A stretch of DNA of 64,000 bases from Candidatus Omnitrophota bacterium (GTDB taxonomy: Bacteria; Omnitrophota; Gorgyraeia; Zapsychrales; Fredricksoniimonadaceae). The DNA lies in assembly GCA_030650275.1 (NCBI GenBank), contig JAUSEK010000019.1, forward strand, positions 144 through 64,143, in the 5' to 3' direction. This document shows, piece by piece, positions 9,209 to 51,945 of this stretch; the stretch's first letter is position 1; the number at the start of each line of letters is the position of its first letter. The notes beneath the pieces are model-generated. The model ran no database searches and was not told the origin of the DNA. It saw only the letters and a program-made list of their open reading frames with translations. A program made the translations under genes and the position numbers.

Positions 9209-9290
9209 CCACCTATTATGGGGACACCCACCGTAACCTTAATTAAAGCGGGGACATGGCCGTAATTAAGGTTACGGTGGGTGTCCCCAG
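9197..9290. repeat. Nested palindromic element. A 27-bp-arm hairpin (GGGGACACCCACCGTAACCTTAATTAA / TTAATTAAGGTTACGGTGGGTGTCCCC, loop AGCGGGGACATGGCC) is preceded by GTAATTAAGTAGCCACC.
   Basis: Read directly, with a 26/27 arm match. It shares TTATGGGGACA with the element at 34441 and AATTAAGGTTACGG.GGGTG with the element at 22101. Confidence 0.8.
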
Positions 9291-9305
9291 ACTGGGTACT
9301 CATTT

Positions 9306-9731: not shown

Positions 9732-10228
9732 GTTTCTTTTTTACCCTTGGCCATTAAAATTTTGCCCGTCCGCACCATCTCCACCACACCGTATTTTTTC
9801 GCCATGGCCTCAAATTCGTTCAACTGGGCGGTGGTCCCGGTCTGTTCAATGATGTAATATTTTTCGGAAGAATCATCGATCTTGACGTGGAATTTGCGCG
9901 CGGCCTTGGTGACAAAGGCCTTGACCGCGGGCGACGCCTTCAATTTGACCAGGGACAGTTCTTTTTCAACGCTGTGGGCCATGTCATGTTCGCCGCAATG
10001 GATGACGTCCACCAATTTGCCCGCGTTCTTGATGATCTGGTCCAGGGTTTCCAGGTTTCCCCTGGCCGTGAGGGTCATGCGTGAATATTTCGGGTTGACC
10101 GTGGGGGAGACCACCAGAGAGTCAATGTTATAACCGCGCCGGGCAAAGACCAAAGCGATGCGCACCAGCACTCCGGGCTTATTGGCCACGAGCACGCTGA
10201 TCGTATGGGAAGGGTCGGTATTTTTCAT
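9728..10228 (-). CDS. ilvN: Acetolactate synthase small (regulatory) subunit with an ACT domain.
   Basis: SVLVANKPGVLVRIALVFARRGYNIDSLVV is the ACT-domain signature of IlvH/IlvN. It sits directly downstream of the large subunit. Confidence 0.85.
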   Translation of the reverse strand: MKNTDPSHTISVLVANKPGVLVRIALVFARRGYNIDSLVVSPTVNPKYSRMTLTARGNLETLDQIIKNAGKLVDVIHCGEHDMAHSVEKELSLVKLKASPAVKAFVTKAARKFHVKIDDSSEKYYIIEQTGTTAQLNEFEAMAKKYGVVEMVRTGKILMAKGKKET

Positions 10229-34487: not shown

Positions 34488-34523
34488 TTGTCATTCCCGA
34501 ATGCTTTTGTCGGGAATCCAGAC
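34488..34523. repeat. Second copy of the ATTCCCGAATGCTT.TGTCGGGAATCCAGAC hairpin unit, in the moaA leader.
   Basis: Read directly. Confidence 0.75.
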
Positions 34524-34526
34524 ACT

Positions 34527-35543
34527 ATGTCCACACTCGATCAACTTAATCGCCCACTAAGAGACCTGCGCATCTCCGTCATTGACCGCTGCAATTTTCG
34601 CTGTCCGTACTGCATGCCCGCGGAACAGTTCCACCGCACCTACGAATTTCTGAACAAAAACGAATGGCTGTCCTTTGATGAAATTGATCGGCTGGCGCGC
34701 GTTTTTGTTTCTTTAGGCGTCAAAAAACTGCGCCTCACCGGCGGCGAGCCCTTGTTGCGGCCCAACATTGACGAACTGGTCCGCAAATTATCCACCATTG
34801 AAGGGGTAGAAGACCTGGCCCTGACCACCAACGGTTCCATGCTGGCCGAATGGGCAGGGCGCTTAAAAGCCGCGGGCCTCAAACGCCTGACCGTGAGTTT
34901 GGATACCTTGGACCCGGACGTCTTTAAGCAAATGAACGGCAATCGGGGCAAGGTGGAGGATGTGCTGGACGGCATCAAAGCCGCCGAGGCGGCCGGTTTT
35001 AAACGCATCAAATTCAATGTCGTCATCCAACGCGGGGTCAATGACCATACCATTCTGGACCTGGTGCGGCATTTCCGCGGCACCGGCCACGTCCTGCGTT
35101 TCATTGAATACATGGACGTGGGCAATCAAAACCGCTGGGAATACAAGTATGTGGTGCCTTCGTCCGAAATTGTCCAAATGATCCAGGACGTCTATCCTTT
35201 GGAACGCTTTGACGGCACCCAGGACGGGGAAACCTCCGAGCGCTACCGTTTCAAGGACGGGCAGGGGGAGATCGGGTTTGTTTCCTCGGTCAGCCACGCT
35301 TTTTGCGGCACCTGTAACCGCCTGCGCCTCTCCGCCGACGGCAAAATGTACACCTGCCTTTTTGCCACCCACGGCACCGACCTGCTGGCGAACCTGCGCA
35401 ACGGCGCCGACGATGCCTTCCTGGCCCATCTCATCCGCGTCACCTGGATGAAGCGCGAAGACCGTTATTCCGAACTGCGGTCCGAACATCGCCAATCTAA
35501 TAGGAATATTCCTAAGGTTGAGATGTATCATATAGGTGGATGA
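34527..35543 (+). CDS. moaA: GTP 3',8-cyclase (molybdenum cofactor biosynthesis MoaA).
   Basis: LRISVIDRCNFRCPYCMP matches the MoaA N-terminal radical-SAM cluster, and C-terminal second-cluster cysteines are present. The last ~15 aa (NRNIPKVEMYHIGG) run into the AT-rich island and may be junction-derived. Confidence 0.85.
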   Translation: MSTLDQLNRPLRDLRISVIDRCNFRCPYCMPAEQFHRTYEFLNKNEWLSFDEIDRLARVFVSLGVKKLRLTGGEPLLRPNIDELVRKLSTIEGVEDLALTTNGSMLAEWAGRLKAAGLKRLTVSLDTLDPDVFKQMNGNRGKVEDVLDGIKAAEAAGFKRIKFNVVIQRGVNDHTILDLVRHFRGTGHVLRFIEYMDVGNQNRWEYKYVVPSSEIVQMIQDVYPLERFDGTQDGETSERYRFKDGQGEIGFVSSVSHAFCGTCNRLRLSADGKMYTCLFATHGTDLLANLRNGADDAFLAHLIRVTWMKREDRYSELRSEHRQSNRNIPKVEMYHIGG

Positions 35544-35549
35544 TGAGAA

Positions 35550-36605
35550 ATGAATAATTGGCCAATACCAGAGTTTACAAAAAGCCAAGTCAGTAAGGCC
35601 GGGGAAACATTAATTAACCCTACCTCTCCATTACAACAGGTAATGGCATTTCGAATACTCAATAATTGGCGTTCTTGTCACGGGTATCCAATTAATACTT
35701 TTCAATCTACTTTAAGGAAGAAGCTTGTTGCGATTGGAGTTCCTAAAGCTATCGTCGCGCAACGTTTAAAAAGAACACCTTCAATTATTAGAAAATTGAA
35801 AAGATTTAAGCATATGCAGCTTTCAAGAATGCAAGATATTGGAGGACTAAGAGCAGTGGTTAGGAATTTAGAGCAACTTCGTGCTTTGGAGAGTAATTAT
35901 GCTAAAAGCCGATTTGAGCATTTTTTTGTAAGTAAAGATGATTATATTCTCTCCCCCAAGAAATCAGGGTATCGGGGGGTTCATATTATTTATAAATATC
36001 GTAATAAAAAAGTGCCTGTATACGATGGTTTATTGCTCGAACTTCAAATTAGAACTGATTTACAACACGCCTGGGCAACAGCGGTAGAGACAATTGATAC
36101 ATTTTTAGAATTTTCATTAAAAGCAAGCGAAGGACCAAGAAGATGGCTTAAGTTTTTTGCTTTAGTAGGATCAGCATTTGCGCATTTAGAAGAAACAACA
36201 CCAGTTCCTGAGTATGGGCATTTATCAAAACGTGAAACATTTCTGGAGGTTGTACAGGCGGCTAAAGGGCTTGGTGTACGTCATAAATTAAGTGCTTTCT
36301 CTATTGTTGCAAATCATATTTTGACTGATGAGAAAACCAGTAGCTACCATTATCATTTAATCGAATTAAATCCTGCTGAGAAAACTGTTAGCCTTCGATC
36401 ATTTGGGCGGGATCAGGTTGAGTTAGCTAATGAGGAATATTCCAAGAAAGAGCAGCGTATTTTAAAAGGTGAAAAGTTGCAAATTGTTCTTGTTTCAGCG
36501 GGAAATATTGAAACATTAAAGCGGGCCTATCCTAATTATTTCTTGGATACCAAGAATTTTGTTCAAAGGTTAGATGAAATTGAGACATTAGTTGGAAAAC
36601 TATAA
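35550..36605 (+). CDS. RelA/SpoT-domain (alarmone-synthetase fold) protein of 351 aa with a ~160-aa C-terminal extension. Candidate CapRel-like fused toxSAS toxin-antitoxin defense protein.
   Basis: Synthetase motifs appear in order: basic Syn1 (..AIGVPKAIVAQRLKRTPSIIRKLKR..), DIGGLRAVV, GYRGVHIIY and ELQIRTDLQHAWA. There is no separate small antitoxin ORF beside it. The gene is AT-rich and sits at the island edge next to a Type I R-M system. Confidence 0.7.
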   Translation: MNNWPIPEFTKSQVSKAGETLINPTSPLQQVMAFRILNNWRSCHGYPINTFQSTLRKKLVAIGVPKAIVAQRLKRTPSIIRKLKRFKHMQLSRMQDIGGLRAVVRNLEQLRALESNYAKSRFEHFFVSKDDYILSPKKSGYRGVHIIYKYRNKKVPVYDGLLLELQIRTDLQHAWATAVETIDTFLEFSLKASEGPRRWLKFFALVGSAFAHLEETTPVPEYGHLSKRETFLEVVQAAKGLGVRHKLSAFSIVANHILTDEKTSSYHYHLIELNPAEKTVSLRSFGRDQVELANEEYSKKEQRILKGEKLQIVLVSAGNIETLKRAYPNYFLDTKNFVQRLDEIETLVGKL

Positions 36606-36660
36606 GAAATAGTAATTCTGATCAATAATGCCCAGCGGATTTGTTAAGGGAGAAAGCATA

Positions 36661-38235
36661 ATGACTGAAAAACAAAGAAAGAAGAACATTAAAAGTATTG
36701 AAGAAACCTTGTGGGATTCGGCAAATAAGCTCCGTGGTTCGGTTGAGCCATCAGAATACAAGCATGTGGTGCTGGGACTGATATTCCTGAAGTTTGCCAG
36801 CGACAAGTTTGAGGAACGCAAGCAGGAATTGATTGCCGAGGGCAAAAAGAAGTATTTAGACATGGTGGAGTTTTACACCAGCAAGAATGTGTTCTATCTA
36901 GCTGAAATCTCACGCTGGAGTTATTTGATCGGAAATGCCAAGCAAGACGACATTGCCATAAAGATTGATACAGCCCTTTTTACCGTTGAGAAGAACAACC
37001 CTGCTCTCAAAGGCGCTTTGCCTGACAATTATTATTCACGAATGAATCTGGATGGAAGCAAGCTGGCGGCTTTGCTCGACACCATCAACAATATTAACAC
37101 CCTTAAAGACAAGCAGCAGGACATTGTAGGCAGGGTGTATGAATACTTCTTGAGTAAGTTCGCCATTGCAGAAGGAAAAGGCAAAGGAGAATTCTACACT
37201 CCCAAGAGTATTGTAAACCTGATTGCAGAGATGATTGAGCCTTACAAAGGGAAGATTTATGACCCTTGTTGCGGTTCGGGCGGCATGTTTGTGCAGAGCA
37301 TGAAGTTTATTGAAAGCCATCACGGAAATAAAAAAGACATTTCCATCTACGGGCAGGAAGCAATTACCACTACTTACAAGTTGGCAAAAATGAATTTAGC
37401 CATTCGGGGCATCAGTGCCAACCTAGGCGATGTGGCAGAGAATACTTTCTTTCGTGATCAGCACAAAGATCTGAAAGCCGATTACATCATGGCTAACCCA
37501 CCTTTCAATCAAAGCCAGTGGCGGGCAGACAACGAACTTACTAACGATCCGCGATGGGCTGGCTACGATGTTCCGCCAACAAGCAATGCTAACTATGCGT
37601 GGATTCTAAACATGGTGAGTAAACTATCTGAAAACGGTGCGGCTGGTTTTGTTTTGGCGAATGGTGCATTGAGTGCCGACGGAACGGAGAAAGCTATTCG
37701 CAGAAAATTGATCGAGAATAATTTGGTGGAAGCAATCATGGTTTTACCTAAAGGCATGTTTTATACAACACCAATTAGCGTTACACTTTGGTTTATGAAT
37801 AGAAATAAAAAAGCAAGAACTATTGAACTAAATGGTGAAATTAAGAAATATCGCAACCGAGAGAGAGAAATCTTATTTTTTGATTTAAGAAAGGTGGGGG
37901 AACCTTTTGAAAAGAAATTCGTGCAGTTTTCAGAAACCGCTATTAAGCAAATAACCGATACCTTTCATAATTGGCAACAGGCTGGTTTTGAGAAAACATA
38001 TCAGAATACGCCAGAGTTTTGCCGCAGCGTATCATTTGAGGAAATAGAGAAGAAAGATTTCTCACTGGTACCAAGCAAGTATATTGAGTTTGTAAATCGT
38101 GATGAGAATATTGACTTTGACGATAAGATGCAGAGTTTACAAACGGAATTTGCCAACCTGCTGAAAATCGAAGAAGAGTCGAAGAAAGATCTATTAATCG
38201 TTTTTAAAGAATTGGGCTATGAAATTAAATTATAA
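36661..38235 (+). CDS. hsdM: Type I restriction-modification system, DNA methyltransferase subunit.
   Basis: HsdM N-terminal domain, an N6-MTase fold with catalytic NPPF (MANPPFNQSQW), and a SAM motif. The ATG at 36661 is preceded by an AAGGGAG RBS. Confidence 0.9.
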   Translation: MTEKQRKKNIKSIEETLWDSANKLRGSVEPSEYKHVVLGLIFLKFASDKFEERKQELIAEGKKKYLDMVEFYTSKNVFYLAEISRWSYLIGNAKQDDIAIKIDTALFTVEKNNPALKGALPDNYYSRMNLDGSKLAALLDTINNINTLKDKQQDIVGRVYEYFLSKFAIAEGKGKGEFYTPKSIVNLIAEMIEPYKGKIYDPCCGSGGMFVQSMKFIESHHGNKKDISIYGQEAITTTYKLAKMNLAIRGISANLGDVAENTFFRDQHKDLKADYIMANPPFNQSQWRADNELTNDPRWAGYDVPPTSNANYAWILNMVSKLSENGAAGFVLANGALSADGTEKAIRRKLIENNLVEAIMVLPKGMFYTTPISVTLWFMNRNKKARTIELNGEIKKYRNREREILFFDLRKVGEPFEKKFVQFSETAIKQITDTFHNWQQAGFEKTYQNTPEFCRSVSFEEIEKKDFSLVPSKYIEFVNRDENIDFDDKMQSLQTEFANLLKIEEESKKDLLIVFKELGYEIKL

Positions 38236-39445
38236 CAAACTTGGTCAGTATATTAAGGAAGTAAATGAAAGAAATAGTGATTTGGCTATTACCAAACTTA
38301 TTGGCGTAAGTATGGAGAAAACATTTATTTCTTCCGTTGCTAATATTGTTGATACAGATATGTCCGTTTATAAGATTCTAAAGAAAGGACAACTTGCTTG
38401 TAAGTTGATGAGTGTAGGAAGAGATGAAAAGCTTCCTGTGGATTTATATAAAAATGATGAACCTGCCATCGTTTCGTCTGCTTATTATGTTTTTGAACCA
38501 ATAGACAACAAGATTCTATTGTCAGAATATTTATTTATGTGGTTATGCCGTCCGGAGAATGATAGATACATTGGTTTTATAAGTGGTGGAGATGTCAGAG
38601 GAGGCATATCATGGGAAACATTTTGTGATATTCCTATTAAAGTTCCCCACCCTGCAAAACAAAAAGAAATTGTAAAAGAATACAACGCCATTGTAAAACG
38701 CATAGCTTTCAACAGTCAGTTTATTCAGAAATTAGAAGAAACAGCACAGGCAATTTACAAGCAATGGTTTGTTGATTTTGAATTTCCTAATGAGAGTAGA
38801 AAGCCCTACAGATCCAATAATGGTGAAATGGAATTTAATGAAAAATTAGAAAGAGAAATCCCAAAGGGGTGGAAAGTTGATGTAATTTCAAAGCTAGTAA
38901 CGGTAAAAGATGGCACACATGATTCACCCGAACCTACAGAGGTTGGTCATCCCTTGGTTACTTCAACGCACTTGAATCTATACGACCTTTCTTTGAATGA
39001 AACCTATAATATTAGCGCAGAAGATTTCAATCAAGCTAATAAACGGAGCAAAGTTGATAAGCACGACATTCTTTTTAGTATGATTGGCACGATTGGTTTA
39101 GTTAATTATGTTTTATATGACAATATAAATTTTGCAATTAAAAATGTGGGGCTTTTTAAGACATCTGAGAGAAAAGAAGTCGCAGAATACATTCTTTATT
39201 TCTTAAAGAGTGACTATTTGAAGTTACACATTCAATCAAGTTTATTAGGAAGCACTCAAAACTATGTAACATTAGACTTTTTAAGGACAATTCCTATTTT
39301 GATTCCTTCCAATAATATTTTTATACAATTTGAAGAATGTGCTGGGAAGATTGTTAATAATATTTATTTAAAAGTAAAAGAAAACAATGCTCTTAAAACA
39401 GTAAAGAATTTATTGCTTTCAAAACTTGCGACTATAGAGAATTAA
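38219..39445 (+). CDS. hsdS: Type I restriction-modification system, specificity subunit.
   Basis: Two target-recognition domains separated by conserved helical repeats; sits between hsdM and hsdR. Confidence 0.85.
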   Translation: MKLNYNKLGQYIKEVNERNSDLAITKLIGVSMEKTFISSVANIVDTDMSVYKILKKGQLACKLMSVGRDEKLPVDLYKNDEPAIVSSAYYVFEPIDNKILLSEYLFMWLCRPENDRYIGFISGGDVRGGISWETFCDIPIKVPHPAKQKEIVKEYNAIVKRIAFNSQFIQKLEETAQAIYKQWFVDFEFPNESRKPYRSNNGEMEFNEKLEREIPKGWKVDVISKLVTVKDGTHDSPEPTEVGHPLVTSTHLNLYDLSLNETYNISAEDFNQANKRSKVDKHDILFSMIGTIGLVNYVLYDNINFAIKNVGLFKTSERKEVAEYILYFLKSDYLKLHIQSSLLGSTQNYVTLDFLRTIPILIPSNNIFIQFEECAGKIVNNIYLKVKENNALKTVKNLLLSKLATIEN

Positions 39446-39448
39446 AAA

Positions 39449-42400
39449 ATGTTCAACGAGGAATCATTAGAAAAAGCCGTCATTGAGCTATTTGCAGGGC
39501 AACAAATCCCGCACTGCAAAGGTGAGACCATTCATAAAGAAATGAGTGATGTCTTGCTTCGCGATGATTTGAAGAAGTTTTTGCTCAATCAATACGCTGC
39601 TGAAGATATTACTCAGCAGGAAATTGAAAGCATCATCCGTAGTTTAGACTTTTTTCCAAGTTCAGCTTTATACGAAAGTAATAAAGCCATCATAAAATTA
39701 TTGGCAGATGGCTTTACAATAAAGAGGGCAGACCGTAGTAAGAAGGATCTCCGCATTCATCTGATAGACTTTGTAACAGACAATAACATTTATAAGTTCG
39801 TGAACCAATTGGAAATATTAGGTTACGAAAAACGTATCCCTGACGGCATTGTTTATATCAATGGCTTGCCATTAGTAGTAATCGAATTTAAAAGCGCAGT
39901 AAAAGAAAATACCACCGTCAAAGATGCCTACACTCAGTTAACGGTTCGCTACCGTAGGGATATTCCAGAGTTGTTTAAATACAATGCTTTTTGTGTAATA
40001 AGCGATGGCGTGAATAACAAAATAGGCTCTCTTTTTGCTCAATATGATTTCTTTTACGCATGGCGGAAAGTAAATCCTGAAGATGAAGCGGTAGATGGCA
40101 TCAATTCGCTTTATAGCATGGTGCAGGGCTTGTTTAACAAACAGCGCCTAAAAGATGTAATTCGTAACTTCATTTATTTCCCTGACACAGCTAAAGACGA
40201 TATAAAGATTGTATGCCGCTATCCGCAATACTACGCCGCTAACAAATTGTTTGATAGCGTTAAGTTGAATATGCGACCACACGGAAGCGGAAAGGGCGGA
40301 ACTTATTTCGGGGCAACTGGCTGCGGCAAAAGTTTCACCATGCTATATCTCACGCGGTTGCTCATGAAAAGCCCACACTTTGCAAGCCCGACCATTGTAT
40401 TGATCACCGATCGAACTGATTTAGACGACCAGCTATCAACACAATTTACCAATGCCAAAAGTTTTATTGGCGATGAAAATGTCATCAGCGTAGAAACCCG
40501 TGCCGAACTTAAAACACTGTTACAGAACAGAAAAAGTGGCGGTGTTTTTCTTACCACCATTCACAAGTTTACAGAAAGCACTGAGTTGCTCACCGATAGA
40601 TCAAATGTGATTTGTATTTCAGACGAAGCGCACCGTTCACAGATCAACCTTGACCAAAGAATAGAAGTTACCGATCAAGGGGTAGCTAAGAAATTCGGCT
40701 TTGCCAAGTACCTGCACGATTCTTTACCACAGGCTACTTACGTGGGCTTCACCGGTACGCCTATTGATGCAACGCTCGATGTGTTTGGTGAGGTAGTAGA
40801 TGCCTACACCATGAAGGAATCAGTGAACGATGAAATTACCGTTAGAATCGTTTATGAAGGCAGAGCCGCTAAAGTATTACTCAATGAGCAGAAACTGAAA
40901 GAGATTGAAGAATATTACAAGAAGTGTTCGGAAGAAGGCGCGAATGAATATCAGGTGGAAGAAAGTAAAAGAGTCGTTACGCAAATGGAAGTTATTTTGG
41001 GCGACCCAAAGCGATTGAAATTAGTAGCCGCAGACTTTGTGGAACATTACGAAAAGCGCATTGAAGAAGGATCTACCATAAGAGGCAAAGCAATGTTTGT
41101 AGCCAGTAGCCGCCCCATTGCTTACGATTTGTATAAAGAAATCATTGCCTTACGACCAGAGTGGGCTGAAGCAAAAGAATGCGAGGAAGGCGTAGAATTG
41201 ACTGCAGAAGAAAAGAGAGAGCTAAAGCCCATTGAGAAAATCAAAATGGTCATGACTCGGCATAGAGATGATCCAAAAGAGCTGTATGACATGCTTGGAA
41301 CAAAAGAAAGCAGAAAAGAGCTAGACCGGCAATTTAAGATTACAAAATCGAATTTCAAAATTGCAATAGTCGTTGATATGTGGATAACCGGCTTTGATGT
41401 TCCATTTTTAGATACTATGTATATCGATAAGCCCATTCAGCAACATTCATTGATACAAACAATCTCCCGAGTGAATCGTGTGTACGAAGGCAAAGAAGCG
41501 GGATTGGTGGTGGACTACATTGGAATTAAAACCAATATGAATATTGCTTTGGCGAAATATACAAAAGTTGGTAGTGATGATTTTGAAGATGTAGGCAAAG
41601 CGGTTGTAATTGTAAAAGATCAGCTGGACTTGCTTGCAAAGCTCTTTCACAAGTTTGATCTACAACCTTTCTTTAACGGGACAGCAATGCAGCAGCTAAG
41701 TTGCCTTAATAACGCAGCAGAGTTTGTCCAGTTGACAGATGAAATGGAAAAGCGTTTTATTGGATTAACCAAGAAGTTACGATCTGCGTATAGCCTTTGC
41801 TGCAGCAGCGAAGGGCTTAGCGCTAAAGAAAGAGACCACATCCATTTTTATTTTGCCGTTAAAGCCATTATCCACAAATTAACAAAAGGCGATGCGCCCG
41901 ATACGGCACAGATGAATGACAAAGTGAGGGAAATGATTAAAGAGGCCTTGATCAGCGATGGCGTAGAAGAGATTTTCAAGCTAGATAAGAACGACCCAAA
42001 GAACAGTACAGATATTTTCAGCGATGAATACATGGCAAAGATAGAGAAAATTACATTGCCGAATACTAAAATCAAGTTGCTTCAGAAATTGCTGATTCAA
42101 GCAATTGAGGAATTTAAGAAGGTAAACAGAATTAAAGGTGTTGATTTTACCAAGAAGATGAAAAAGCTGGTTGATCTGTATAATGAAAGAAAAGATTTTC
42201 AGGCAATGCAAAGCGATGTGTTGGACGATGTAGCCGAACAGTTTGCGAAGCTGTATAGAGATTTGCAGAAGGAGCGCAACTCATTCATGGATTTAGGAAT
42301 TGATTTTGAAGAAAAGGCATTTTATGACATTCTGAAAGCCATTGCACTGAAATACAAGTTTGAATATCCCGAAGATAAATTGATTGTACTTTCACAAGCA

Positions 42401-42589
42401 GTTAAAAAGATTGTGGACGATAAAGCGAAATATACTGATTGGTCTCATCGTGATGACATCAAAGCAGAATTAAAGATGGATTTGATTTTAGTTCTCGCTG
42501 AACATGGTTACCCCCCAGTACCCAAAGATGAAGTTTTTAAAGAAATATTTGAACAGGCCGAGAATTTCAAGAAATATAGTGAATTATAA
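39449..42589 (+). CDS. hsdR: Type I restriction enzyme, R (endonuclease/translocase) subunit.
   Basis: A 1046-aa protein with an N-terminal PD-(D/E)xK-like nuclease region, SF2 motifs (GSGKS..., DEAH in ISDEAHRSQ), and a C-terminal helical domain. Confidence 0.9.
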   Translation: MFNEESLEKAVIELFAGQQIPHCKGETIHKEMSDVLLRDDLKKFLLNQYAAEDITQQEIESIIRSLDFFPSSALYESNKAIIKLLADGFTIKRADRSKKDLRIHLIDFVTDNNIYKFVNQLEILGYEKRIPDGIVYINGLPLVVIEFKSAVKENTTVKDAYTQLTVRYRRDIPELFKYNAFCVISDGVNNKIGSLFAQYDFFYAWRKVNPEDEAVDGINSLYSMVQGLFNKQRLKDVIRNFIYFPDTAKDDIKIVCRYPQYYAANKLFDSVKLNMRPHGSGKGGTYFGATGCGKSFTMLYLTRLLMKSPHFASPTIVLITDRTDLDDQLSTQFTNAKSFIGDENVISVETRAELKTLLQNRKSGGVFLTTIHKFTESTELLTDRSNVICISDEAHRSQINLDQRIEVTDQGVAKKFGFAKYLHDSLPQATYVGFTGTPIDATLDVFGEVVDAYTMKESVNDEITVRIVYEGRAAKVLLNEQKLKEIEEYYKKCSEEGANEYQVEESKRVVTQMEVILGDPKRLKLVAADFVEHYEKRIEEGSTIRGKAMFVASSRPIAYDLYKEIIALRPEWAEAKECEEGVELTAEEKRELKPIEKIKMVMTRHRDDPKELYDMLGTKESRKELDRQFKITKSNFKIAIVVDMWITGFDVPFLDTMYIDKPIQQHSLIQTISRVNRVYEGKEAGLVVDYIGIKTNMNIALAKYTKVGSDDFEDVGKAVVIVKDQLDLLAKLFHKFDLQPFFNGTAMQQLSCLNNAAEFVQLTDEMEKRFIGLTKKLRSAYSLCCSSEGLSAKERDHIHFYFAVKAIIHKLTKGDAPDTAQMNDKVREMIKEALISDGVEEIFKLDKNDPKNSTDIFSDEYMAKIEKITLPNTKIKLLQKLLIQAIEEFKKVNRIKGVDFTKKMKKLVDLYNERKDFQAMQSDVLDDVAEQFAKLYRDLQKERNSFMDLGIDFEEKAFYDILKAIALKYKFEYPEDKLIVLSQAVKKIVDDKAKYTDWSHRDDIKAELKMDLILVLAEHGYPPVPKDEVFKEIFEQAENFKKYSEL

Positions 42590-42647: not shown

Positions 42648-42676
42648 AGAAATAGTAACAGGCGCTAATTTTTTTA
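42648..42676. repeat. Junction motif AGAAATAGTAACAGGCGCTAATTTTTTTA.
   Basis: A near-identical copy at 49313-49340 directly abuts the mazG-like start codon. Confidence 0.7.
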
Positions 42677-44380: not shown

Positions 44381-44388
44381 GATTCAGT

Positions 44389-44492
44389 TGGAAACAATTT
44401 CACAATCATAAGGATGTGGCGTTGTCCCTAGTTTTGCAGGCGGCGGAGGTGCTGGAGCATTTCTAGTGGAAATCGCCGCAAGAGGTCAAGAA
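44389..44492 (+). pseudogene. Degenerate fragment of a MazG-like gene, corresponding to residues ~20-54 of the intact copy at 49341, with an in-frame TAG.
   Basis: About 88% nucleotide identity to 49397-49502. Its translation KQFHNHKDVALSLVLQAAEVLEHF*WKSPQEVK compares with the intact KQFHNHKDVALSLVLEAAEVLEHFQWKSPQEVK. Confidence 0.8.
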
Positions 44493-44766
44493 AGTAGCTA
44501 AGAGTTTACTTGCGACGCTTAAACATGGGCAGTGAGTGCTTGATTGGTGTAAAAGACAACAAACGCGAGCAGCTGTCCGTGTGGCTATTGGCCGGGTCTC
44601 GGATGAATTATCGCAACGTTATGGTTGCGATCTTTTTGAATCAAAGTGTGAGGTCATTTATTGACACATTTATGATAGTTATTTTGGTGAGGGAAGAAGT
44701 TATTTTGTAAGAAATTGAGTTTTTATATGAAAAATGCAACAGACCTAAACTATATAAAGACTCGCG

Positions 44767-47700
44767 ATGATTCCTAAATTCAACAAAGGCGACCAGGTTC
44801 AGCGTACAAACGACTCCAGTCGTATCGGGGTTATTGTTGATGTGGATGTTTTACATGGTGGAATTCAATATTATAAAGTTTTTTTTGATGGAGAAGAACG
44901 TCCGGTTCTTTCAGAGTTTGATATTCGGCCCCACATAGAGGGGGTTTCGCCAGTGGATGTCTTAAGGCTGGGGCACTTGGGATTTTTCGAAGAATTTCAG
45001 TTGAACATCCTTTATCAGAAGCTTTCTAAGATTAATATCCTTACAAATAACCTTTATTCATTTAATGCCTCCCGAACCAATTTTTATCCGTATCAGTTCA
45101 AGCCACTTCTCAAGTTTCTGGATTCTTTCAACAATCGCGTTCTTATTGCGGATGAGGTAGGTCTTGGTAAAACTATTGAGGCGGGTCTTATTTTTCAGGA
45201 ATTAAAAGCGAGGCAAAATCTCCAACGGATTCTTGTCGTTTGCCCGTCAGGTCTGAAAGACAAATGGAAGATGGAAATGGAACATCGCTTTGGGGAAGAA
45301 TTTAATATTTGGCGTCGGCCAGACCTCATGCGTTTCTTGGATAAGCTTGAGGAGTCTTATGCGGTTCAGTCCTTGAAGGTTATTATTCCACTTGAAACTA
45401 TTCGCTACAGGGGTGTAGTTGAACGAATAGAAGAGATCGGTCCTGCATTTGATTTGGTGATCATTGATGAAGCGCATCATATGCGAAATCAGACAACGCT
45501 GAACCATAGGACTGGAAAAGTTTTGAGCGATTTTGCAGATGCTATGGTTATGTTAACGGCAACCCCAGTGCAAATGGGGAATAGAGATCTTTTTAATTTA
45601 TTGCATATTTTAGATGATGAGAACTTTTCAAATCATCAAGTTTCGGAGGAACTCTTTACTCAAAATGAACCTGTTGTCTTGGCCCAAACATGTTTGAGCC
45701 ATATTCCCGCAGATCTTGAAAGAGCTGGGGAGTTGTTAACCGATTTTTTTGCGGATTTAGATAAGGCAAGGAAGCCTTATCAGCATAATCTTTGTTTGGA
45801 TGTTATTGATCGGATGAAGCAGCTCAAGGCAGTTGATCAGCGATTGCCAGAATATCGTCGCCAGTTAGTCGATATTCAGAGGAATGTGTCGGAATTAAAC
45901 TTTCTAGGACATATTCTAAATCGCACTCGCAAGAGAGATGTTAAAGAAAAGATCGTGTTACGACAGGCTAAAACTGTGAAGGTGGATCTATCTGATAAGG
46001 AGAAGGTGTTTTATAAGGCTGTAGAGGCCTTTGTGCGGGCGGATGCAAAGAGGCGGGGCATTGATTCAAGGGTGATTGGATGGATGCTGATCAATCCGTT
46101 AAGACGTACGGCTTCGTGTATATCAGCTATGGTGGAGCATTATAAGCAGCATTTAGATAATTCTGAAGTTGAGGATGATGATCCTCTAGATGATGAGAGT
46201 GATGAGAAAACAGAGTCAAAAAGCTCAGGTTTTGAATTGGCGCGTAATAATCTTTTGGAAATTATTAACACTTGGGGAGGGTCTACTGAAGATACGAAAT
46301 TTCAAAAGTTTATGGAGGCTATTCAGAAGTTAAAGAAAGAGGATGGGAAGCTCAAAATAATGGTTTTTGCTTTTTATAAGGCAACCTTACGTTATCTTTC
46401 TAAAAAATTGAAAGCTGCGGGGATAAAAAATCTTATTATTTCAGGAGACGTGCCTTATAAAGAGCGAGCGGCATTGATTAATCAATTTAAGGACGAAAAT
46501 TCTTCTATAGAAGTGTTGTTGTCATCAAGGGTCGGCAGTGAAGGTTTAGATTTTCAATTTTGCGATACCATGGTTAATTATGATCTTCCATGGAACCCAA
46601 TGGAGGTTGAGCAGAGAATAGGACGCCTTGATCGTATTGGGCAGCGCTCCCAAAAGATCAGAATTTATAACATGTCTTTGGCGGATACAATAGAGGATCG
46701 GGTGCTTATGCGGCTTTATGAACGGATCGGGATTTTTGAACGTTCGATAGGAGGATTGGAGCCTATTATGGGCGCGCAGATCCAGGAACTTGTTACTGAG
46801 GTGTTGACCAAAGAGCTTTCTGCTAAAGAGCAGGAGGATCTTGTTGAACGCAAGGCATTGATTTTGGAGAAGAAAGAACGGGAGATGCGTGAGCTGGAGG
46901 AAAAATCGGCAAAATTTATTGGGGTAGATACTTATTTTGAAGATGAGATTGCAAGAATACAGAAAACAAGAAGATATATAACTCCGCAGCAGTTGAAAAA
47001 GTTTATTCTTTATTTTTTAGAGCGGTTCTTCCCAAAGACTCGCTTTGAATATTCCGAAAAGACTTGCCTAGGGAAGATTGTGGCTGATCAAGCGTTGCAA
47101 GGTTTTATCTCAAAATGTGAAAAGTCACATGATTTATCAAGATTTTATTCTACGGATGGGGTTGAAATTACCTTTGATTCTGATACGGCTTTGCAGAATC
47201 CCAGTATAGAGTTTCTAAATAATACGCATCCACTAACAGCTCTTATCTTAAGGTATTATCAAGAAAATCCGATTCATCACAATAATGCTTATTTTGTTAA
47301 ACTTGATACGAATATTGCGCCTAAGGGGAAATATTTTTTTTATGTATTCCGACTTAAAATCGAAGCGGCGCGACACACCAACACGATTGAGACAGTTTTT
47401 ATTGATGAAACCCTTAATGAGATTTGCCCAGGAGAAGATTCCGAGGTTTTGTTAGGTGAGATGCTAGAGAGCGGGCGGAGATCGGAAGATGGAAGCTCTT
47501 TTTCTATTGATCCAGGTTATTTGGATCAGTCCCATCGTATGGCGCTAGGGACATTTTTAAAGAATAAGGAACAAAGAAAATCTGATGCGGAACGGAGCAA
47601 TAACCTTTTGATTGAAGGTCGAGTAGCCAGTATTCGATTAAATTTTGAAAAGAAGATTAAACAGAAACAGAAATTATTAGAAAGGGGTATTCAGGGGAAT

Positions 47701-47847
47701 AAGAAAAAGAGTTATCTTACGATGCTAGAGGGGGAGATTAGGAAATATAGAAATCAAATGGAGGCTGGCATCACTTTGGAGGAGACCAAACGGAGCGTCA
47801 GTTGTTCGCATGTTGAAATTGCTGCAGGGATTCTGGAGATCGTGTAG
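44767..47847 (+). CDS. SNF2-family (Swi2/Snf2, RapA/HepA-like) helicase/translocase of 1026 aa with an N-terminal Tudor/SH3-like domain.
   Basis: Motif I DEVGLGKTIEAG, motif II DEAHHMRN, and a helicase-C region (..LSSRVGSEGLDFQFCDTMVNYDLPWNP...QRIGRLDRIGQ). The N-terminus KGDQVQR...RIGVIVDV....YYKVFFDG resembles the RapA N-terminal Tudor-like fold. Confidence 0.85.
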   Translation: MIPKFNKGDQVQRTNDSSRIGVIVDVDVLHGGIQYYKVFFDGEERPVLSEFDIRPHIEGVSPVDVLRLGHLGFFEEFQLNILYQKLSKINILTNNLYSFNASRTNFYPYQFKPLLKFLDSFNNRVLIADEVGLGKTIEAGLIFQELKARQNLQRILVVCPSGLKDKWKMEMEHRFGEEFNIWRRPDLMRFLDKLEESYAVQSLKVIIPLETIRYRGVVERIEEIGPAFDLVIIDEAHHMRNQTTLNHRTGKVLSDFADAMVMLTATPVQMGNRDLFNLLHILDDENFSNHQVSEELFTQNEPVVLAQTCLSHIPADLERAGELLTDFFADLDKARKPYQHNLCLDVIDRMKQLKAVDQRLPEYRRQLVDIQRNVSELNFLGHILNRTRKRDVKEKIVLRQAKTVKVDLSDKEKVFYKAVEAFVRADAKRRGIDSRVIGWMLINPLRRTASCISAMVEHYKQHLDNSEVEDDDPLDDESDEKTESKSSGFELARNNLLEIINTWGGSTEDTKFQKFMEAIQKLKKEDGKLKIMVFAFYKATLRYLSKKLKAAGIKNLIISGDVPYKERAALINQFKDENSSIEVLLSSRVGSEGLDFQFCDTMVNYDLPWNPMEVEQRIGRLDRIGQRSQKIRIYNMSLADTIEDRVLMRLYERIGIFERSIGGLEPIMGAQIQELVTEVLTKELSAKEQEDLVERKALILEKKEREMRELEEKSAKFIGVDTYFEDEIARIQKTRRYITPQQLKKFILYFLERFFPKTRFEYSEKTCLGKIVADQALQGFISKCEKSHDLSRFYSTDGVEITFDSDTALQNPSIEFLNNTHPLTALILRYYQENPIHHNNAYFVKLDTNIAPKGKYFFYVFRLKIEAARHTNTIETVFIDETLNEICPGEDSEVLLGEMLESGRRSEDGSSFSIDPGYLDQSHRMALGTFLKNKEQRKSDAERSNNLLIEGRVASIRLNFEKKIKQKQKLLERGIQGNKKKSYLTMLEGEIRKYRNQMEAGITLEETKRSVSCSHVEIAAGILEIV

Positions 47848-49309
47848 AGTTTTTTTTCAAAAAAAGTCGTTATCTGGTCAGAAAGTCAAACCGGAAGATC
47901 AGACCGAAAGTCCTGCCGCTGCGCCTGCAATTATCAAGACATCATCTGGGAAGCTTCCCATTCATGTTGGTATTGATTTTGGAACAAGTTGTTCTAAAGC
48001 GTGTTATCAAATCCAAGATGGAAGGGAGAAGGTTTACTTAATTGATTTTAAACATCAGTTAAAGTCTTTTCCTTCATACGTTATTCCTTCAGTTCTTATT
48101 GGTGATGAGCAAAATCGGATATATATAGGTGAAGAGGCAGGTGAGGCTGTAGAAGCAGGAAAATGGGGATTAGGGTTAAGAAATTTTAAAACACTCTTAG
48201 CGTCAGTTCAGAATGAGGATTTTGTTGACAAAGTTTCCGCATCTCATTTCAAGGAAAATTTACAACTATTAGGTCTTGATAAGGAGGGCGTTGGAGTATC
48301 AGAAGTTACGTCTCTTTATGTTGCCTATATGATGCACCGATGCAGAGATTTTCTAAAGCGTCAATATGTAGGCAGAGAATTGCATATTAATTATAATGTG
48401 TGTATTCCTATCGATTATGCTGAAGATAATCTCGTAAGAAAAGACTTTGAAAAAATGTTGGCTGTAGCTCAGGAACTCTACAGATTTTGGGAACGAGAGA
48501 AAGGTGAGTCGCGCAGTTTATTACGTCTTGCCAGTGAATTAAAAAGCCAGTGTGTATATGATGAAACTCAAATGAATGTTTTTGCTATTCCTGAGGCTGT
48601 CGCAGAACTGGTTGGTTATCGTAAGTCTGCGGATAGGGAGGCAGGCTTGTACGCTCTTATTGATATTGGTTCGGGAACAACCGACGTATCGATTTTTAGA
48701 CTTGACCGAGGTTTGAAAGAGCGTGCTGTGTGGTTGTCATCAGATGCTATACCTATGGGCATGTATCAATTAGAGAAATTAGTTGTGAAAGCTTTGAGGA
48801 AACAAGGACATGATGATTCGTTGGGTGAAGTTTATAGAGCTTTCGAGAATTTTAAGGAAATTTCAACCGGGCTTCAGGAGGATGTGTTCTTAAGAATAAG
48901 AAAGAGGATTAGGGCTTTTATTAGAAGTGATGAGTATAAAAGACCTTGGAGATCTGCTCATATCAAATTGAGGAAACAAAGAAGAGAGAGTTTGGATGAT
49001 ATAAAGATTGTTTTTCTCGCAGGAGGAGGAGCAAAGATTGCCTTGGCCAAAGGCATGAATTTTCTTTTTAGTTCATCGCCGCTTGCTTCATCGGCGGTTT
49101 CTAAAAAGCCCTATAACTTGTCAGCGTTGTCCTGTTCTCCCAATCTAGAGGGTGCTTTGGTTTCTGATTTTTGGCGCCTATCCGTGGCTTATGGATTAAG
49201 TTTTCCAGCACCAAAGTTGGGAGAATATAAGCTTCCGAAAGATTTTCCAGAGGATAATCCGCCTTCTTTACCAATACAGGATTGGCCGGATAGGGATGAT
49301 ACGCGGTAA
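47810..49309 (+). CDS. Hsp70/actin-fold (ASKHA superfamily) ATPase of 499 aa. Its start overlaps the 3' end of the SNF2 gene by 38 nt.
   Basis: Phosphate-1 motif HVGIDFGTSCSKA (compare DnaK IGIDLGTTNS), a connect motif VFAIPEAVAELVGY, and phosphate-2 ALIDIGSGTTDVSIF (compare DnaK DLGGGTFDVS). Confidence 0.75.
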   Translation: MLKLLQGFWRSCRVFFQKKSLSGQKVKPEDQTESPAAAPAIIKTSSGKLPIHVGIDFGTSCSKACYQIQDGREKVYLIDFKHQLKSFPSYVIPSVLIGDEQNRIYIGEEAGEAVEAGKWGLGLRNFKTLLASVQNEDFVDKVSASHFKENLQLLGLDKEGVGVSEVTSLYVAYMMHRCRDFLKRQYVGRELHINYNVCIPIDYAEDNLVRKDFEKMLAVAQELYRFWEREKGESRSLLRLASELKSQCVYDETQMNVFAIPEAVAELVGYRKSADREAGLYALIDIGSGTTDVSIFRLDRGLKERAVWLSSDAIPMGMYQLEKLVVKALRKQGHDDSLGEVYRAFENFKEISTGLQEDVFLRIRKRIRAFIRSDEYKRPWRSAHIKLRKQRRESLDDIKIVFLAGGGAKIALAKGMNFLFSSSPLASSAVSKKPYNLSALSCSPNLEGALVSDFWRLSVAYGLSFPAPKLGEYKLPKDFPEDNPPSLPIQDWPDRDDTR

Positions 49310-49340
49310 AAAGAAATAGAGTGACAGGCGCTAATTTTTA

Positions 49341-49688
49341 ATGGCAGAAATCAAAACAATCACCGCAAAAATAAGAAAATTCCGCGATGAGCGGGATTGG
49401 AAGCAATTCCACAATCATAAGGACGTGGCGCTGTCTTTGGTCTTAGAGGCGGCAGAAGTGCTGGAGCATTTCCAGTGGAAATCGCCGCAAGAGGTCAAGG
49501 AACATGGCGAGGCCTGCAGGTCCGAGATCTCGGATGAGCTGGCGGATGTTGCCGTGTATTTATTTGAACTCGCGGATAATCTCGGGATCGATTTGTCAAA
49601 GGCCATTGATATCAAAATGAAGAAAAATGCCCTGAAATACCCGGTTGAGAAAGCCAGGGGCAGGCATACGAAATACAACAATCTTTAG
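49341..49688 (+). CDS. MazG-like nucleoside triphosphate pyrophosphohydrolase (small all-alpha NTP-PPase).
   Basis: EEA.E..E motifs in ..LEAAEVLEHF.. and ..ELADVAVYLFELA.. characteristic of MazG/HisE-type NTP-PPases; 115 aa. Confidence 0.75.
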   Translation: MAEIKTITAKIRKFRDERDWKQFHNHKDVALSLVLEAAEVLEHFQWKSPQEVKEHGEACRSEISDELADVAVYLFELADNLGIDLSKAIDIKMKKNALKYPVEKARGRHTKYNNL

Positions 49689-49692
49689 GTAG

Positions 49693-49775
49693 AAATTAAA
49701 CATTTGAAAATCGCGCCAGGAATCATTAGAATCATCCTTAGTCAAGCAGGGCTTCCCCGGCCGTAGTCTGTTTGA
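49693..49775 (+). promoter_or_regulatory. Repeat unit R1: near-consensus sigma70 promoter (TTGAAA-17nt-TAGAAT, with -35 at 49704-49709 and -10 at 49727-49732) plus a conserved leader GTCAAGCAGGGCTTCCCCGGCCGTAG, upstream of the ORF6N gene.
   Basis: Read directly; a 17-nt spacer. Copies R2 (50399-50482) and R3 (51801-51900) match at roughly 85-95%. Confidence 0.65.
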
Positions 49776-49828
49776 CAAAAATCCCCTGTAGTAAATCTAT
49801 TAACTTTTAATCTACAAGGGGGTATTCC

Positions 49829-50398: not shown

Positions 50399-50482
50399 GA
50401 GAAATTAACATTTGAAAACCGCGCCAGGAATCATTAGAATCATCCTTAGTCAAGCAGGGCTTCCCCGGCCGTGATCTGCTTG
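50399..50482 (+). promoter_or_regulatory. Repeat unit R2: TTGAAA (50412-50417) -17nt- TAGAAT (50435-50440) plus the conserved leader, upstream of the AbiEii gene.
   Basis: Read directly. Confidence 0.65.
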
Positions 50483-50617
50483 GTAAATTCCCCTCCAAGT
50501 GAGGACATTGATACGATTCTTCAAGGTGCCAATTTGGCTCCCCATGCGGAGCATCAGTCTTCTTGATACAATTTGACAATACTACTTATGAGTAGTATAC
50601 TTTCAGTGAGGCCAAAG

Positions 50618-51313
50618 ATGAAAAACAAGATCGCCTATATAAAGAAAGAGCAGAAAAGAATCACCGGATTAGTCGCTCGCAAATTCAAGGACTATTACTT
50701 GACCGGCGGCACGGCGCTGGCTTTTTATGTCCGGCACCGTTTCTCGGAGGATTTAGATTTTTTTAGCCAAAAGTATGACAAGAAAACACCGGAAAAGATC
50801 ATGGCCTATATTTCCCAAGAAACCGGATTTGATTATCAACTGGATGCCGAGCAGGATGATCCTAAATTAATTCCGATGAAGGTTTATTTTATGGAATTAA
50901 AGGGTGGTGAAGTATTGAAGATAGATTTTGTTAAGGATTATGTCGCAAATGTCCATCCAATCAAGAACGGTATGCACTCCATGGATGATATTTACTACAG
51001 GAAGATCTGTGCGGCGATAGGGGGCCAGGAAAAACAAGGCGAGGCAGGGCAGGTCGTGGCCACGGGCCGGCGAAGCGTTAAAGACCTGTTTGATATTTAC
51101 TATCTTTCTTCTCATTACAAGTCGTTGGCGGATTTTTTCTTTGAATATTTTGCGTACAACCATACAGAACGCCTTGAAGCCTGGTACAGAGGGTTTGACC
51201 GGACAGAAGCAAAATTGGCTTTGATGGACCTGGTTCCCAAGGTGGACACGGGGAAGGTTTTTAAGTATTTGGATGGGCAAATATTAAAACTGATCCCTGG
51301 AAAACTGTTGTGA
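50618..51313 (+). CDS. AbiEii/AbiGii-family nucleotidyltransferase toxin (DUF1814).
   Basis: GGTALAFYVRHRFSEDLDFF matches the AbiEii NTase motif (GG[ST]AL ... R.S.D[IL]D). The start was taken at MKNKIAYI (50618). Confidence 0.7.
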   Translation: MKNKIAYIKKEQKRITGLVARKFKDYYLTGGTALAFYVRHRFSEDLDFFSQKYDKKTPEKIMAYISQETGFDYQLDAEQDDPKLIPMKVYFMELKGGEVLKIDFVKDYVANVHPIKNGMHSMDDIYYRKICAAIGGQEKQGEAGQVVATGRRSVKDLFDIYYLSSHYKSLADFFFEYFAYNHTERLEAWYRGFDRTEAKLALMDLVPKVDTGKVFKYLDGQILKLIPGKLL

Positions 51314-51320
51314 GGCATCT

Positions 51321-51788
51321 ATGAAGATCAATTGGTTGTGGGACACAACGCTGAACAAGGTGCGGGTCAAGAAGATCCTGCATAATGAAAGAGACCCGCG
51401 TTTTTACATTTATGCGGAGAAGTTGTTTTCCCGTGTCGACGATCCCAAGGAGGCCTTTAGTTATGTTTCTAAAGAAGCTTTTTGCCGTCAATGGCCTGTT
51501 GTCAGAAAAAGGATCGCAAAAGATGCCTGGGCAAGAGAGAGGGCGGGTTTCTGGCAGGGTATCTATGAACAGACGTTGAGTATCCCGCCAGAGCGATTAA
51601 GTGTTGCCCAACGGATCAAAGAATTAAGGGTCCATATGGGGTATACCCAAAAGGAAATGGCTAAAAGATTGGGTGTTATTCAGCAGTACGTTTCCCGTTT
51701 GGAAGCCGGCCGGGAGAATTTGACCTTGGATACCTTAAAACGGATAGCCCAAGTTTTTGATAAAGATCTGATCGTTCAATTGAATTAA
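51321..51788 (+). CDS. XRE-family HTH protein (C-terminal HTH_XRE, novel N-terminal domain); candidate cognate antitoxin or regulator for the upstream AbiEii.
   Basis: The C-terminus QRIKELRVHMGYTQKEMAKRLGVIQQYVSRLEAGRENLTLDTL is a classic HTH_3. The gene starts 8 nt after the AbiEii stop. Confidence 0.6.
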   Translation: MKINWLWDTTLNKVRVKKILHNERDPRFYIYAEKLFSRVDDPKEAFSYVSKEAFCRQWPVVRKRIAKDAWARERAGFWQGIYEQTLSIPPERLSVAQRIKELRVHMGYTQKEMAKRLGVIQQYVSRLEAGRENLTLDTLKRIAQVFDKDLIVQLN

Positions 51789-51800
51789 TTCGAGTGGCAC

Positions 51801-51900
51801 GTTATGAGGTTTGGGTGAGGGAAGTTTTTGAAAACTGCACCAGGAATCATTAGGATCATTCTTAGTTAAGCAGGGCTTCCCCGGCCATAGTTTGCTTGCT
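51801..51900 (+). promoter_or_regulatory. Repeat unit R3: TTGAAA (51828-51833) -17nt- TAGGAT (51851-51856) plus the conserved leader, upstream of the Bro-N gene. It is preceded by the motif TTATGAGGTTTGGGTGAGGG.
   Basis: Read directly. Confidence 0.6.
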
Positions 51901-51945
51901 CCCCGTAGCACAAGCGTTATAATCTATTAAACAGAAGGGGGCATC

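Follow-up and report, generated by a model that had tools for sequence, protein, structure and literature searches.

CapRelSJ46, the tRNA pyrophosphokinase of Salmonella phage SJ46 (PDB 7ZTB and 9ERV), is the closest described relative of the protein analysed here, the product of a gene at 35550..36605 (+) in a 64,000-nucleotide (nt) stretch of Candidatus Omnitrophota DNA (contig JAUSEK010000019.1), which we call the window. CapRelSJ46 combines a toxSYNTH enzyme with anchor helices, a three-stranded sheet with a helix joining its last two strands, a YXXY switch and a C-terminal helical extension; its crystal structures represent the open state, and the closed state was reported by the authors from AlphaFold (PMC9712102). 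The YXXY motif has a role in neutralisation (PMC9712102, PMC11782079). The enterobacterial proteins CapRelEbc and CapRelKp belong to the same fused family, to judge from published descriptions, and in the reports on them the variable pseudo-zinc-finger domain (pseudo-ZFD) sets which phage is sensed (PMC9712102, PMC13423816); CapRelEbc is described there as sensing T7 Gp0.4 complexed with FtsZ (PMC13423816). In the bipartite toxSAS toxin-antitoxin systems FaRel2:ATfaRel2 and PhRel:ATphRel, a tRNA-targeting toxSYNTH toxin is likewise neutralised by a pseudo-ZFD and a YXXY motif blocking the ATP donor site (PMC11782079), but toxin and antitoxin come from separate genes and form a heterotetramer, whereas the gene in the window is a single open reading frame (ORF) with no adjacent small gene and no conserved neighbour.

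We read the gene as coding for a defence protein of the CapRel subfamily of toxic small alarmone synthetases (toxSAS), in which toxin and antitoxin share one polypeptide. Most likely it would act as an autoinhibited tRNA 3'-CCA pyrophosphokinase that is released by a phage protein. We put the probability of this full mechanism at roughly 0.8, and we regard membership in the CapRel family as close to certain. A sequence-only reading of the window had already named a CapRel-like fused toxSAS at this position, and it is borne out by full-length homology to CapRelSJ46, a fold match and conserved autoinhibition residues. The layout is that of CapRelSJ46 throughout: N-terminal helices, toxSYNTH, anchors, a cysteine-free pseudo-ZFD, YXXY and a C-terminal helix. 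The protein is shorter, however, with 351 rather than 373 amino acids, and is without an 8-residue insert after the Syn1 helix and ~13 residues of pseudo-ZFD loops; and whereas CapRelSJ46 lies in a prophage, the gene studied here lies in a chromosomal defence island of an Omnitrophota metagenome-assembled genome (MAG).

Sequence and predicted structure of the fused protein

When the protein was compared by phmmer with all PDB chain sequences, 7ztb_A and 9erv_A were the best matches (E 3.6e-46), in an alignment that runs end to end (query 8-341 against chain 14-366) and includes an identical AYPNYF near the C-terminus. The next matches, to RelQ and others, had E values of at least 4.6e-11 and covered residues 66-182 only. 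A family profile built from 72 members gave the same picture, with full-length homology to CapRelSJ46 at E 8e-65 and matches to RelQ/RelP at E ~1e-18 that were confined to profile positions 67-177. Pfam finds RelA_SpoT at residues 71-177 only (E 2.1e-16) and has no family for the C-terminal 166 amino acids, even at E<=10, so that the sequence-only reading was correct in leaving some 160 residues there unassigned. Used as the sole query against the PDB, those 166 residues matched only the antitoxin region of CapRelSJ46 (residues 209-366, E 6.8e-8), so the match at this end of the protein does not derive from the synthetase domain. With Pfam blank, this homology was revealed only by comparison with solved structures. 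In a global alignment, the two proteins are 38% identical over 326 aligned positions; for the N-terminal part alone the figure is 42%, and for the C-terminal part 34%.

That the 7ZTB chain is CapRelSJ46 was confirmed by rebuilding its residues 14-366 from the printed alignment, since all 12 residues named in PMC9712102 (A77, R79, R116, Y155, L280, L307, V338, L339, A341, A351, Y352 and Y355) fell at their published numbers. The titles in the fold-search library read 'Structure of the Salmonella tRNA pyrophosphokinase CapRel' and 'Salmonella CapRel bound to Bas11 Gp54'.

An AlphaFold2 model built on the family alignment had a mean predicted local distance difference test score (pLDDT) of 91.3 and a predicted TM-score (pTM) of 0.88. 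After the synthetase core, the model has three helices, two strands, a helix and a further strand, and its tail consists of short helices at 320-326 and 328-331 followed by a final helix; this topology matches the arrangement published for CapRelSJ46 (PMC9712102). The top three Foldseek matches in the PDB were 7ztb_B, 7ztb_A and 9erv_A (~356 columns, TM-score 0.68-0.70, E ~1e-21). RelP and RelQ followed at E ~1e-7 over ~190 residues only, with TM-scores of 0.37-0.44 when normalised by query length. A comparison of the C-terminus with the CapRel antitoxin domain had been proposed as a check on the sequence-only reading, and both the sequence match and the fold search came out in its favour. The features of the gene are as follows, all on the + strand.

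35550..36605, +, complete fused CapRel-family toxSAS gene, with toxin and cis-antitoxin/sensor in one polypeptide (PADLOC PDC-S33, CapRelSJ46 homology)
35534..35539, +, Shine-Dalgarno-like AGGTGG, 10 nt 5' of the ATG and inside the last codons of the upstream gene moaA (sequence reading)
35550..35735, +, N-terminal helical region, residues 1-62, three helices before the catalytic core (AlphaFold2 helices 11-22, 27-42 and 45-61; aligns to CapRelSJ46 14-69)
35736..36134, +, toxSYNTH catalytic core, residues 63-195 (Pfam RelA_SpoT 71-177, SJ46 residue mapping)
Within the catalytic core, +, codons of R72 (35763-35765), R101 (35850-35852) and the G-loop residue Y141 (35970-35972), together with ELQIRTDLQHAWA
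36135..36323, +, anchor-1 helices, residues 196-258, joining the toxSYNTH core to the sensor domain (AlphaFold2 helices 197-213, 227-241 and 243-253; aligns to SJ46 ~216-275)
36324..36503, +, pseudo-ZFD, residues 259-318, beta-beta-alpha-beta, cysteine-free (AlphaFold2 strands 267-274 and 279-286, helix 287-305, strand 311-317)
36528..36539, +, YXXY neutralisation motif Y327-P-N-Y330, identical to YPNY 352-355 of CapRelSJ46 (alignment; short AlphaFold2 helix 328-331)
36552..36599, +, C-terminal helical extension, residues 335-350, anchor-2 equivalent (AlphaFold2 helix 335-350; aligned to the SJ46 C-terminus)

The reading frame is intact from its ATG to a stop codon that is included in the coordinates given. 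The start codon is supported by an N-terminus, M-x-W-P-x-P-x-Y/F-S/T-K-x-Q-V, that is kept in 71 homologues. A complete RelA/SpoT motif set had been claimed for the N-terminal half, and the motifs quoted (MQDIGGLRAVV, SGYRGVHIIY and LELQIRTDLQHAWA) are all there, with R72, R101 and Y141 intact. The N-terminal half is strongly basic, with an isoelectric point (pI) of 10.2 and 32 lysines and arginines against 15 aspartates and glutamates; the C-terminal half has a pI of 8.85 and is not acidic. The zinc finger is called 'pseudo' because the C-terminal region, residues 196-351, contains no cysteine.

Could the protein instead be a housekeeping small alarmone synthetase, making (p)ppGpp like RelQ/RelP and merely extended at the C-terminus by a regulatory domain? 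It shares the RelA/SpoT synthetase core fold and motifs with RelQ/RelP (YjbM/YwaC), the Pfam RelA_SpoT match is what one would see in such an enzyme, and there is a weak, sub-threshold NCBIfam match to the GTP diphosphokinase YjbM (score 55.6 bits, cut-off 320). However, RelQ and RelP have ~210-230 amino acids and no antitoxin/sensor domain, and the protein here adds ~60 N-terminal and ~155 C-terminal residues that match CapRel. The similarity to RelQ/RelP spans ~115 core residues at E ~1e-11, compared with E 1e-46 for full-length CapRel, the fold matches are as poor as noted above, and it is the CapRel antitoxin to which the C-terminal domain shows specific homology. The gene is also low-GC foreign DNA in a defence island, and its family is patchy across many phyla at 40-60% identity. 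We rejected a RelQ/RelP identity on the core-only sequence and fold matches and the CapRel-specific C-terminus, in agreement with the sequence-only reading, and consider it extremely improbable.

The flanks of the gene are tight. The stop codon of moaA (34488-35543; Pfam Radical_SAM and Mob_synth_C) lies 6 nt upstream, and the longest ORF of hsdM begins 22 nt downstream; these gaps leave no space for a separate antitoxin gene, just as had been claimed. The ORF list of the locus has no small ORF between the gene and its flanking genes, and the sole nearby ORF on the opposite strand (36600-36863, 87 amino acids) overlaps hsdM. A bipartite toxSAS module (FaRel2, PhRel, PhRel2 or FaRel) was rejected in view of the missing adjacent antitoxin gene; FaRel2 and ATfaRel2 chains were absent from the matches of the PDB profile search even at E<=10. 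The only terminator-like hairpin at the gene is weak and lies within its coding 3' end, and Rfam has no RNA family at the gathering threshold anywhere in the window. An identical protein is deposited at NCBI as 'MAG: RelA/SpoT domain-containing protein [Candidatus Omnitrophota bacterium]', and a second assembly of the same organism has the identical gene order.

Predicted autoinhibition, trigger and acceptor substrate

The residues on which CapRelSJ46 depends are largely kept. In the alignment, its G-loop tyrosine Y155 corresponds to Y141, its adenine/ATP-coordinating arginines R79 and R116 to R72 and R101, and the YXXY tyrosines Y352 and Y355 to Y327 and Y330, the motif being YPNY in both proteins. 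Substitutions at the scaffold positions A77, V338, L339 and A351 make CapRelSJ46 constitutively toxic (PMC9712102), and all four residues are retained, as A70, V313, L314 and A326; a further scaffold residue, A341, is replaced conservatively by S316. Across the 72-sequence family alignment, the conserved functional positions are invariant or at least 90% conserved: R72, R101, Y141 and Y327 are invariant, and Y330 is conserved in at least 90%. L280 and L307, which in CapRelSJ46 serve recognition of the SECphi27 capsid protein (PMC9712102), are not kept and correspond to K262 and T279. Mean identity to the query within the family falls from 64.8% in the catalytic core to ~50% in the anchors and 47.5% in the pseudo-ZFD, and column entropy follows the same pattern of core against sensor, though the contrast is moderate. 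A variable sensor beside a conserved core is also the pattern of the published CapRel homologues (PMC9712102).

By analogy with CapRelSJ46 (PMC9712102, PMC11578894, PMC11782079, PMC11559606), we suggest the following course of events. In the uninfected cell, the C-terminal domain with its pseudo-ZFD would fold back onto the enzyme, and the 3-10 helix formed by YPNY would sit between R72 and R101, plugging the pyrophosphate-donor site so that ATP is excluded. Upon infection, a newly made phage protein would bind the pseudo-ZFD, which is presumed to be the trigger-binding sensor, together with the anchors, and hold the enzyme open. The basic toxSYNTH domain could then, with ATP as the donor, pyrophosphorylate uncharged tRNAs at their 3'-CCA end, whereupon aminoacylation and translation would stop and the infection would abort. 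Given its different specificity residues and its shorter pseudo-ZFD, the protein probably responds to a trigger other than those of CapRelSJ46.

The acceptor substrate is the step at which a CapRel fold might lead elsewhere. Acceptor substrates vary among toxSAS subfamilies and sequence alone is not decisive (PMC11782079; bioRxiv 10.64898/2026.04.06.716658), and identity to the sole biochemically characterised fused CapRel is only 38%, so that the same C-terminal switch might control synthesis of a nucleotide alarmone, either (pp)pApp, as in FaRel and Tas1, or (p)ppGpp, as in GRel/Pag1B of PANGU. We think this unlikely. The protein is far closer to CapRelSJ46 than to any other solved RelA/SpoT homologue, and donor-site neutralisation by YXXY and a pseudo-ZFD goes with tRNA-targeting toxSAS (PMC11782079). 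Enzymes of the latter kind have a basic CCA groove and acceptor-stem surface (PMC11559606), and the basic N-terminal half fits such a tRNA-binding surface. GRel/Pag1B, the PANGU type I effector, has an acidic, DNA-mimicking C-terminal domain and an adjacent gene for a nucleoid-associated activator, Pag1A (bioRxiv 10.64898/2026.04.06.716658); the C-terminal half of the Omnitrophota protein, by contrast, is not acidic, and there is no Pag1A-like or immunity partner gene beside it. On these two differences we rejected GRel/Pag1B as the identity of the protein, the comparison being one by description only.

For the tRNA-targeting, phage-triggered mechanism that we prefer, several points weigh on the other side. 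Toxicity, autoinhibition, tRNA target and phage trigger are all carried over from a homologue with no more than 38% identity, and the sequence does not settle whether the acceptor is tRNA or an adenine or guanine nucleotide. There is no sigma-70-like promoter site on the + strand upstream of the gene, and since no separate promoter was found, we infer that the gene is co-transcribed with moaA. Most of the close homologues (55-60% identity) are solitary genes among housekeeping genes, outside recognisable defence islands. A root-mean-square deviation (RMSD) of ~9.7 A at a TM-score of 0.68 is the only hint that the domain arrangement of the model differs from the open crystal form; the combination of a high RMSD with a good TM-score would fit a different relative position of the two halves of the protein. 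Finally, the location in an island is circumstantial as support for phage defence.

Family distribution and gene neighbourhoods

In PADLOC, the protein matches the single-gene candidate model PDC-S33 over residues 4-344 (E 2.5e-121). CapRelSJ46 itself matches PDC-S33 and no other PADLOC model (E 1.4e-85), and PDC-S33 is therefore effectively another name for the fused CapRel family. No mention of this candidate label was found in the library of papers searched. The family is large, with >7,000 clusters at 90% identity among 8,000 candidates scored, and its members typically have 345-365 amino acids. Its distribution is patchy, at 40-60% identity, over many phyla, among them Desulfobacterota, Nitrospirota, Acidobacteriota, Bacteroidota, Verrucomicrobiota, Planctomycetota, many lineages of the candidate phyla radiation (CPR) and two archaeal MAGs, a spread that marks a horizontally mobile gene. 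Among phage genomes, full-length relatives were found only in Salmonella phage SJ46 and an E. coli phage.

Omnitrophota was not among the CapRel host phyla in the 2022 CapRel paper, but an Omnitrophota host is unsurprising because the family is distributed so broadly. We would regard the gene as an addition to a well-characterised kind of system, namely a divergent fused CapRel, 38% identical to the reference, from an uncultivated phylum, and the understanding of how CapRel-type systems work is unchanged by it. Public annotation is generic, either 'RelA/SpoT domain-containing protein' or 'putative GTP pyrophosphokinase', and with PDC-S33 recognised as CapRel, pipelines could name such genes properly. 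The gene is also a candidate for trigger discovery, in that the catalytic and autoinhibitory machinery is conserved and the sensor surface is different.

We called genes in 80 species-representative loci and clustered the neighbours within +/-4 genes. No neighbour family recurred in >4 of the 80 loci, and the lack of a conserved partner gene thus points to a single-gene system, as expected for a fused protein. The immediate neighbours are mixed, with IS1595 transposases (4), integrases (2), resolvases (2), several genes of restriction-modification (R-M) or candidate defence systems, and a large number with housekeeping roles. The position next to Type I R-M genes that is seen in the window is not conserved across these related loci and therefore amounts to co-location within the island. 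The sequence-only reading had taken the neighbouring Type I R-M system as fitting a defence role: the operon does follow directly, but its adjacency is not a family feature.

Genes of translation stand beside a number of family members. In a Latescibacterota MAG (loci L008/L015), thrS lies directly downstream, at 8073-10004, of a family gene at 7001-8053, and in Desulfamplus (L009/L053) glyQ and glyS are directly downstream. In two Syntrophobacterales genomes (L002/L004), proS, a long Rel and rpmB are upstream. A class II aminoacyl-tRNA synthetase is near the family gene in L027 and TypA in L085; at least three translational GTPases lie near family members, and DnaK is within three genes in four loci. 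At least 5 aminoacyl-tRNA synthetases were counted among 142 flanking genes, where ~1-1.5 would be expected by a rough estimate. Another toxSAS, FaRel2, is reported to be specific for tRNA-Gly and tRNA-Thr (PMC11559606); the adjacency to thrS and glyQS may be chance. A tRNA gene lies within ~700 nt of the family gene in 6 of the 80 loci (L018, L057, L077, L079, L080 and L090), and in one of these, from Gottesmanbacteria (L057), clustered tRNA genes for Ser and Arg surround it. Such proximity fits insertion at tRNA hot spots.

These surroundings bear on whether phages are sensed at all. A fused toxin-antitoxin of this kind could be a selfish, addiction-type stabiliser of its island, or a regulator that answers to a signal from the host, such as one related to translation or tRNA, and not to a phage protein. 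Close homologues frequently stand alone, with genes for housekeeping functions or translation on either side (thrS, glyQS, proS, long Rel, class II aminoacyl-tRNA synthetase, TypA, DnaK), tRNA genes lie near some of them as just described, and CapRelEbc is reported to require host FtsZ along with a phage protein for its activation (PMC13423816). Against this, the synthetase idea was formed after two such cases had been seen and the numbers are small, islands commonly insert beside tRNA and conserved genes, and the mobile-element genes (4 IS1595, 2 integrases, 2 resolvases) and several R-M/defence genes also flank family members. The gene in the window, moreover, clearly belongs to a foreign defence island. 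Variation within the protein is greatest in the sensor domain, as expected at a host-phage interface, and every characterised fused CapRel defends against phages. A function apart from phage sensing therefore seems to us improbable, and phage-triggered abortion of infection remains the preferred reading for the Omnitrophota protein.

A related thought concerns the ~350-amino-acid clade as a whole, whose thousands of members are spread over numerous phyla of bacteria, CPR lineages and also some MAGs from archaea, often solitary beside aminoacyl-tRNA synthetase, translational GTPase or tRNA genes. Such proteins might be CapRel-fold switches with distinct tRNA isoacceptor specificity, or might be gated by a host translation-related factor, rather than being purely sensors of phage capsids. 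The reported need of CapRelEbc for FtsZ would be a precedent for host gating. We consider the idea a long shot; if it were true, the Omnitrophota copy would be a mobile example of a more widespread regulatory module that targets tRNA.

Two further observations concern the limits of the family. Archaeal-binned contigs from a Methanobacteriota MAG (L013) and a Methanosarcinales MAG (L018) carry full-length family genes with 51-56% identity to the query; if these contigs are not binning contamination, fused CapRel extends to archaea. On a Cupriavidus sp. plasmid, a family gene (L011, 7001-8317; protein P0090) encodes 438 amino acids with an extra C-terminal DUF2188, a variant architecture of fused CapRel, and its neighbours are plasmid, zeta-toxin and transposase genes.

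The defence island around the gene

The sequence-only reading placed the gene at the edge of an island, and base composition agrees: guanine plus cytosine (GC) content drops at the gene start from 0.59 (35400-35499) to 0.36 (35500-35599) and stays at 0.33-0.47 until ~53 kb, in a genome of ~0.54. The CapRel-family gene itself has 33-39% GC, compared with ~54% for the genome. It is the first gene, at a sharp left edge, of a foreign, horizontally acquired defence island of ~18 kb that extends from 35.5 to ~53-54 kb. The Type I R-M operon follows.

36628..42589, +, Type I R-M operon, given for context only: hsdM 36628-38235, hsdS 38219-39445, hsdR 39449-42589 (PADLOC MTase_I, Specificity_I and REase_I; Pfam)

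Besides these genes, the island contains those for a GmrSD_N/DUF262 protein, a MazG-like protein, an ORF6N/PDC-S05 protein and a Bro-N protein, and it also carries a DrmD-like SNF2 helicase, an actin/Hsp70-like ATPase, and an AbiEii-like nucleotidyltransferase with a helix-turn-helix (HTH) protein. There is no integrase among the island ORFs of at least 90 amino acids, no phage or integrase gene adjoins the CapRel-family gene, and no tRNA gene is present in the window. Neither direct repeats nor a duplicated moaA 3' end were found at the far side of the island. In base composition, the last ~60 nt of moaA (35480-35543), which code for its conserved ...KVEMYHIGG tail, resemble the AT-rich island, and the junction may therefore fall within the 3' end of moaA, a new end having come from the island; the far side of the island showed no displaced copy of the original one.

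At 44767-49309, a gene for a 1026-amino-acid SNF2 helicase with a full-length PADLOC match to DrmD (E 2e-164) overlaps by 38 nt the start of a gene for a 499-amino-acid actin/Hsp70-like ATPase (Pfam MreB-like_C; weak PDC-M61B match). None of the other DISARM genes (DrmA/B/C/MI) is present alongside it, and the helicase and ATPase may together make up a defence module of two genes that is as yet uncharacterised. In the non-coding gap that follows the GmrSD-like gene, there is a 106-nt copy (44388-44493; 87% identity), without an intact ORF, of the interior of the MazG-like gene (49397-49502; gene 49341-49688). The 20-nt motif AGTRACAGGCGCTAATTTTT precedes both the GmrSD-like gene (42654-42673) and the MazG-like gene (49320-49339). 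These repeats suggest an older arrangement of GmrSD and MazG into which the SNF2/ATPase block was inserted or with which it recombined.

An intergenic element of ~86 nt occurs three times, at 49694-49779, 50402-50487 and 51818-51903, with 77-91% identity, each copy just 5' of a gene (ORF6N/PDC-S05, AbiEii-like and Bro-N, respectively). It contains a good promoter of the sigma-70 type, with 17 nt between TTGAAA and TAGAAT, and then a conserved GC-rich leader, and it had no match in Rfam. From its sequence it looks like a shared promoter and leader cassette. Downstream of one copy, at 50573-51788, a gene for an AbiEii-family nucleotidyltransferase (246 amino acids) is followed directly by one for a 155-amino-acid protein with a C-terminal XRE-type HTH, a pair that resembles an AbiE-like toxin-antitoxin in which the DNA-binding partner is encoded downstream instead of upstream.

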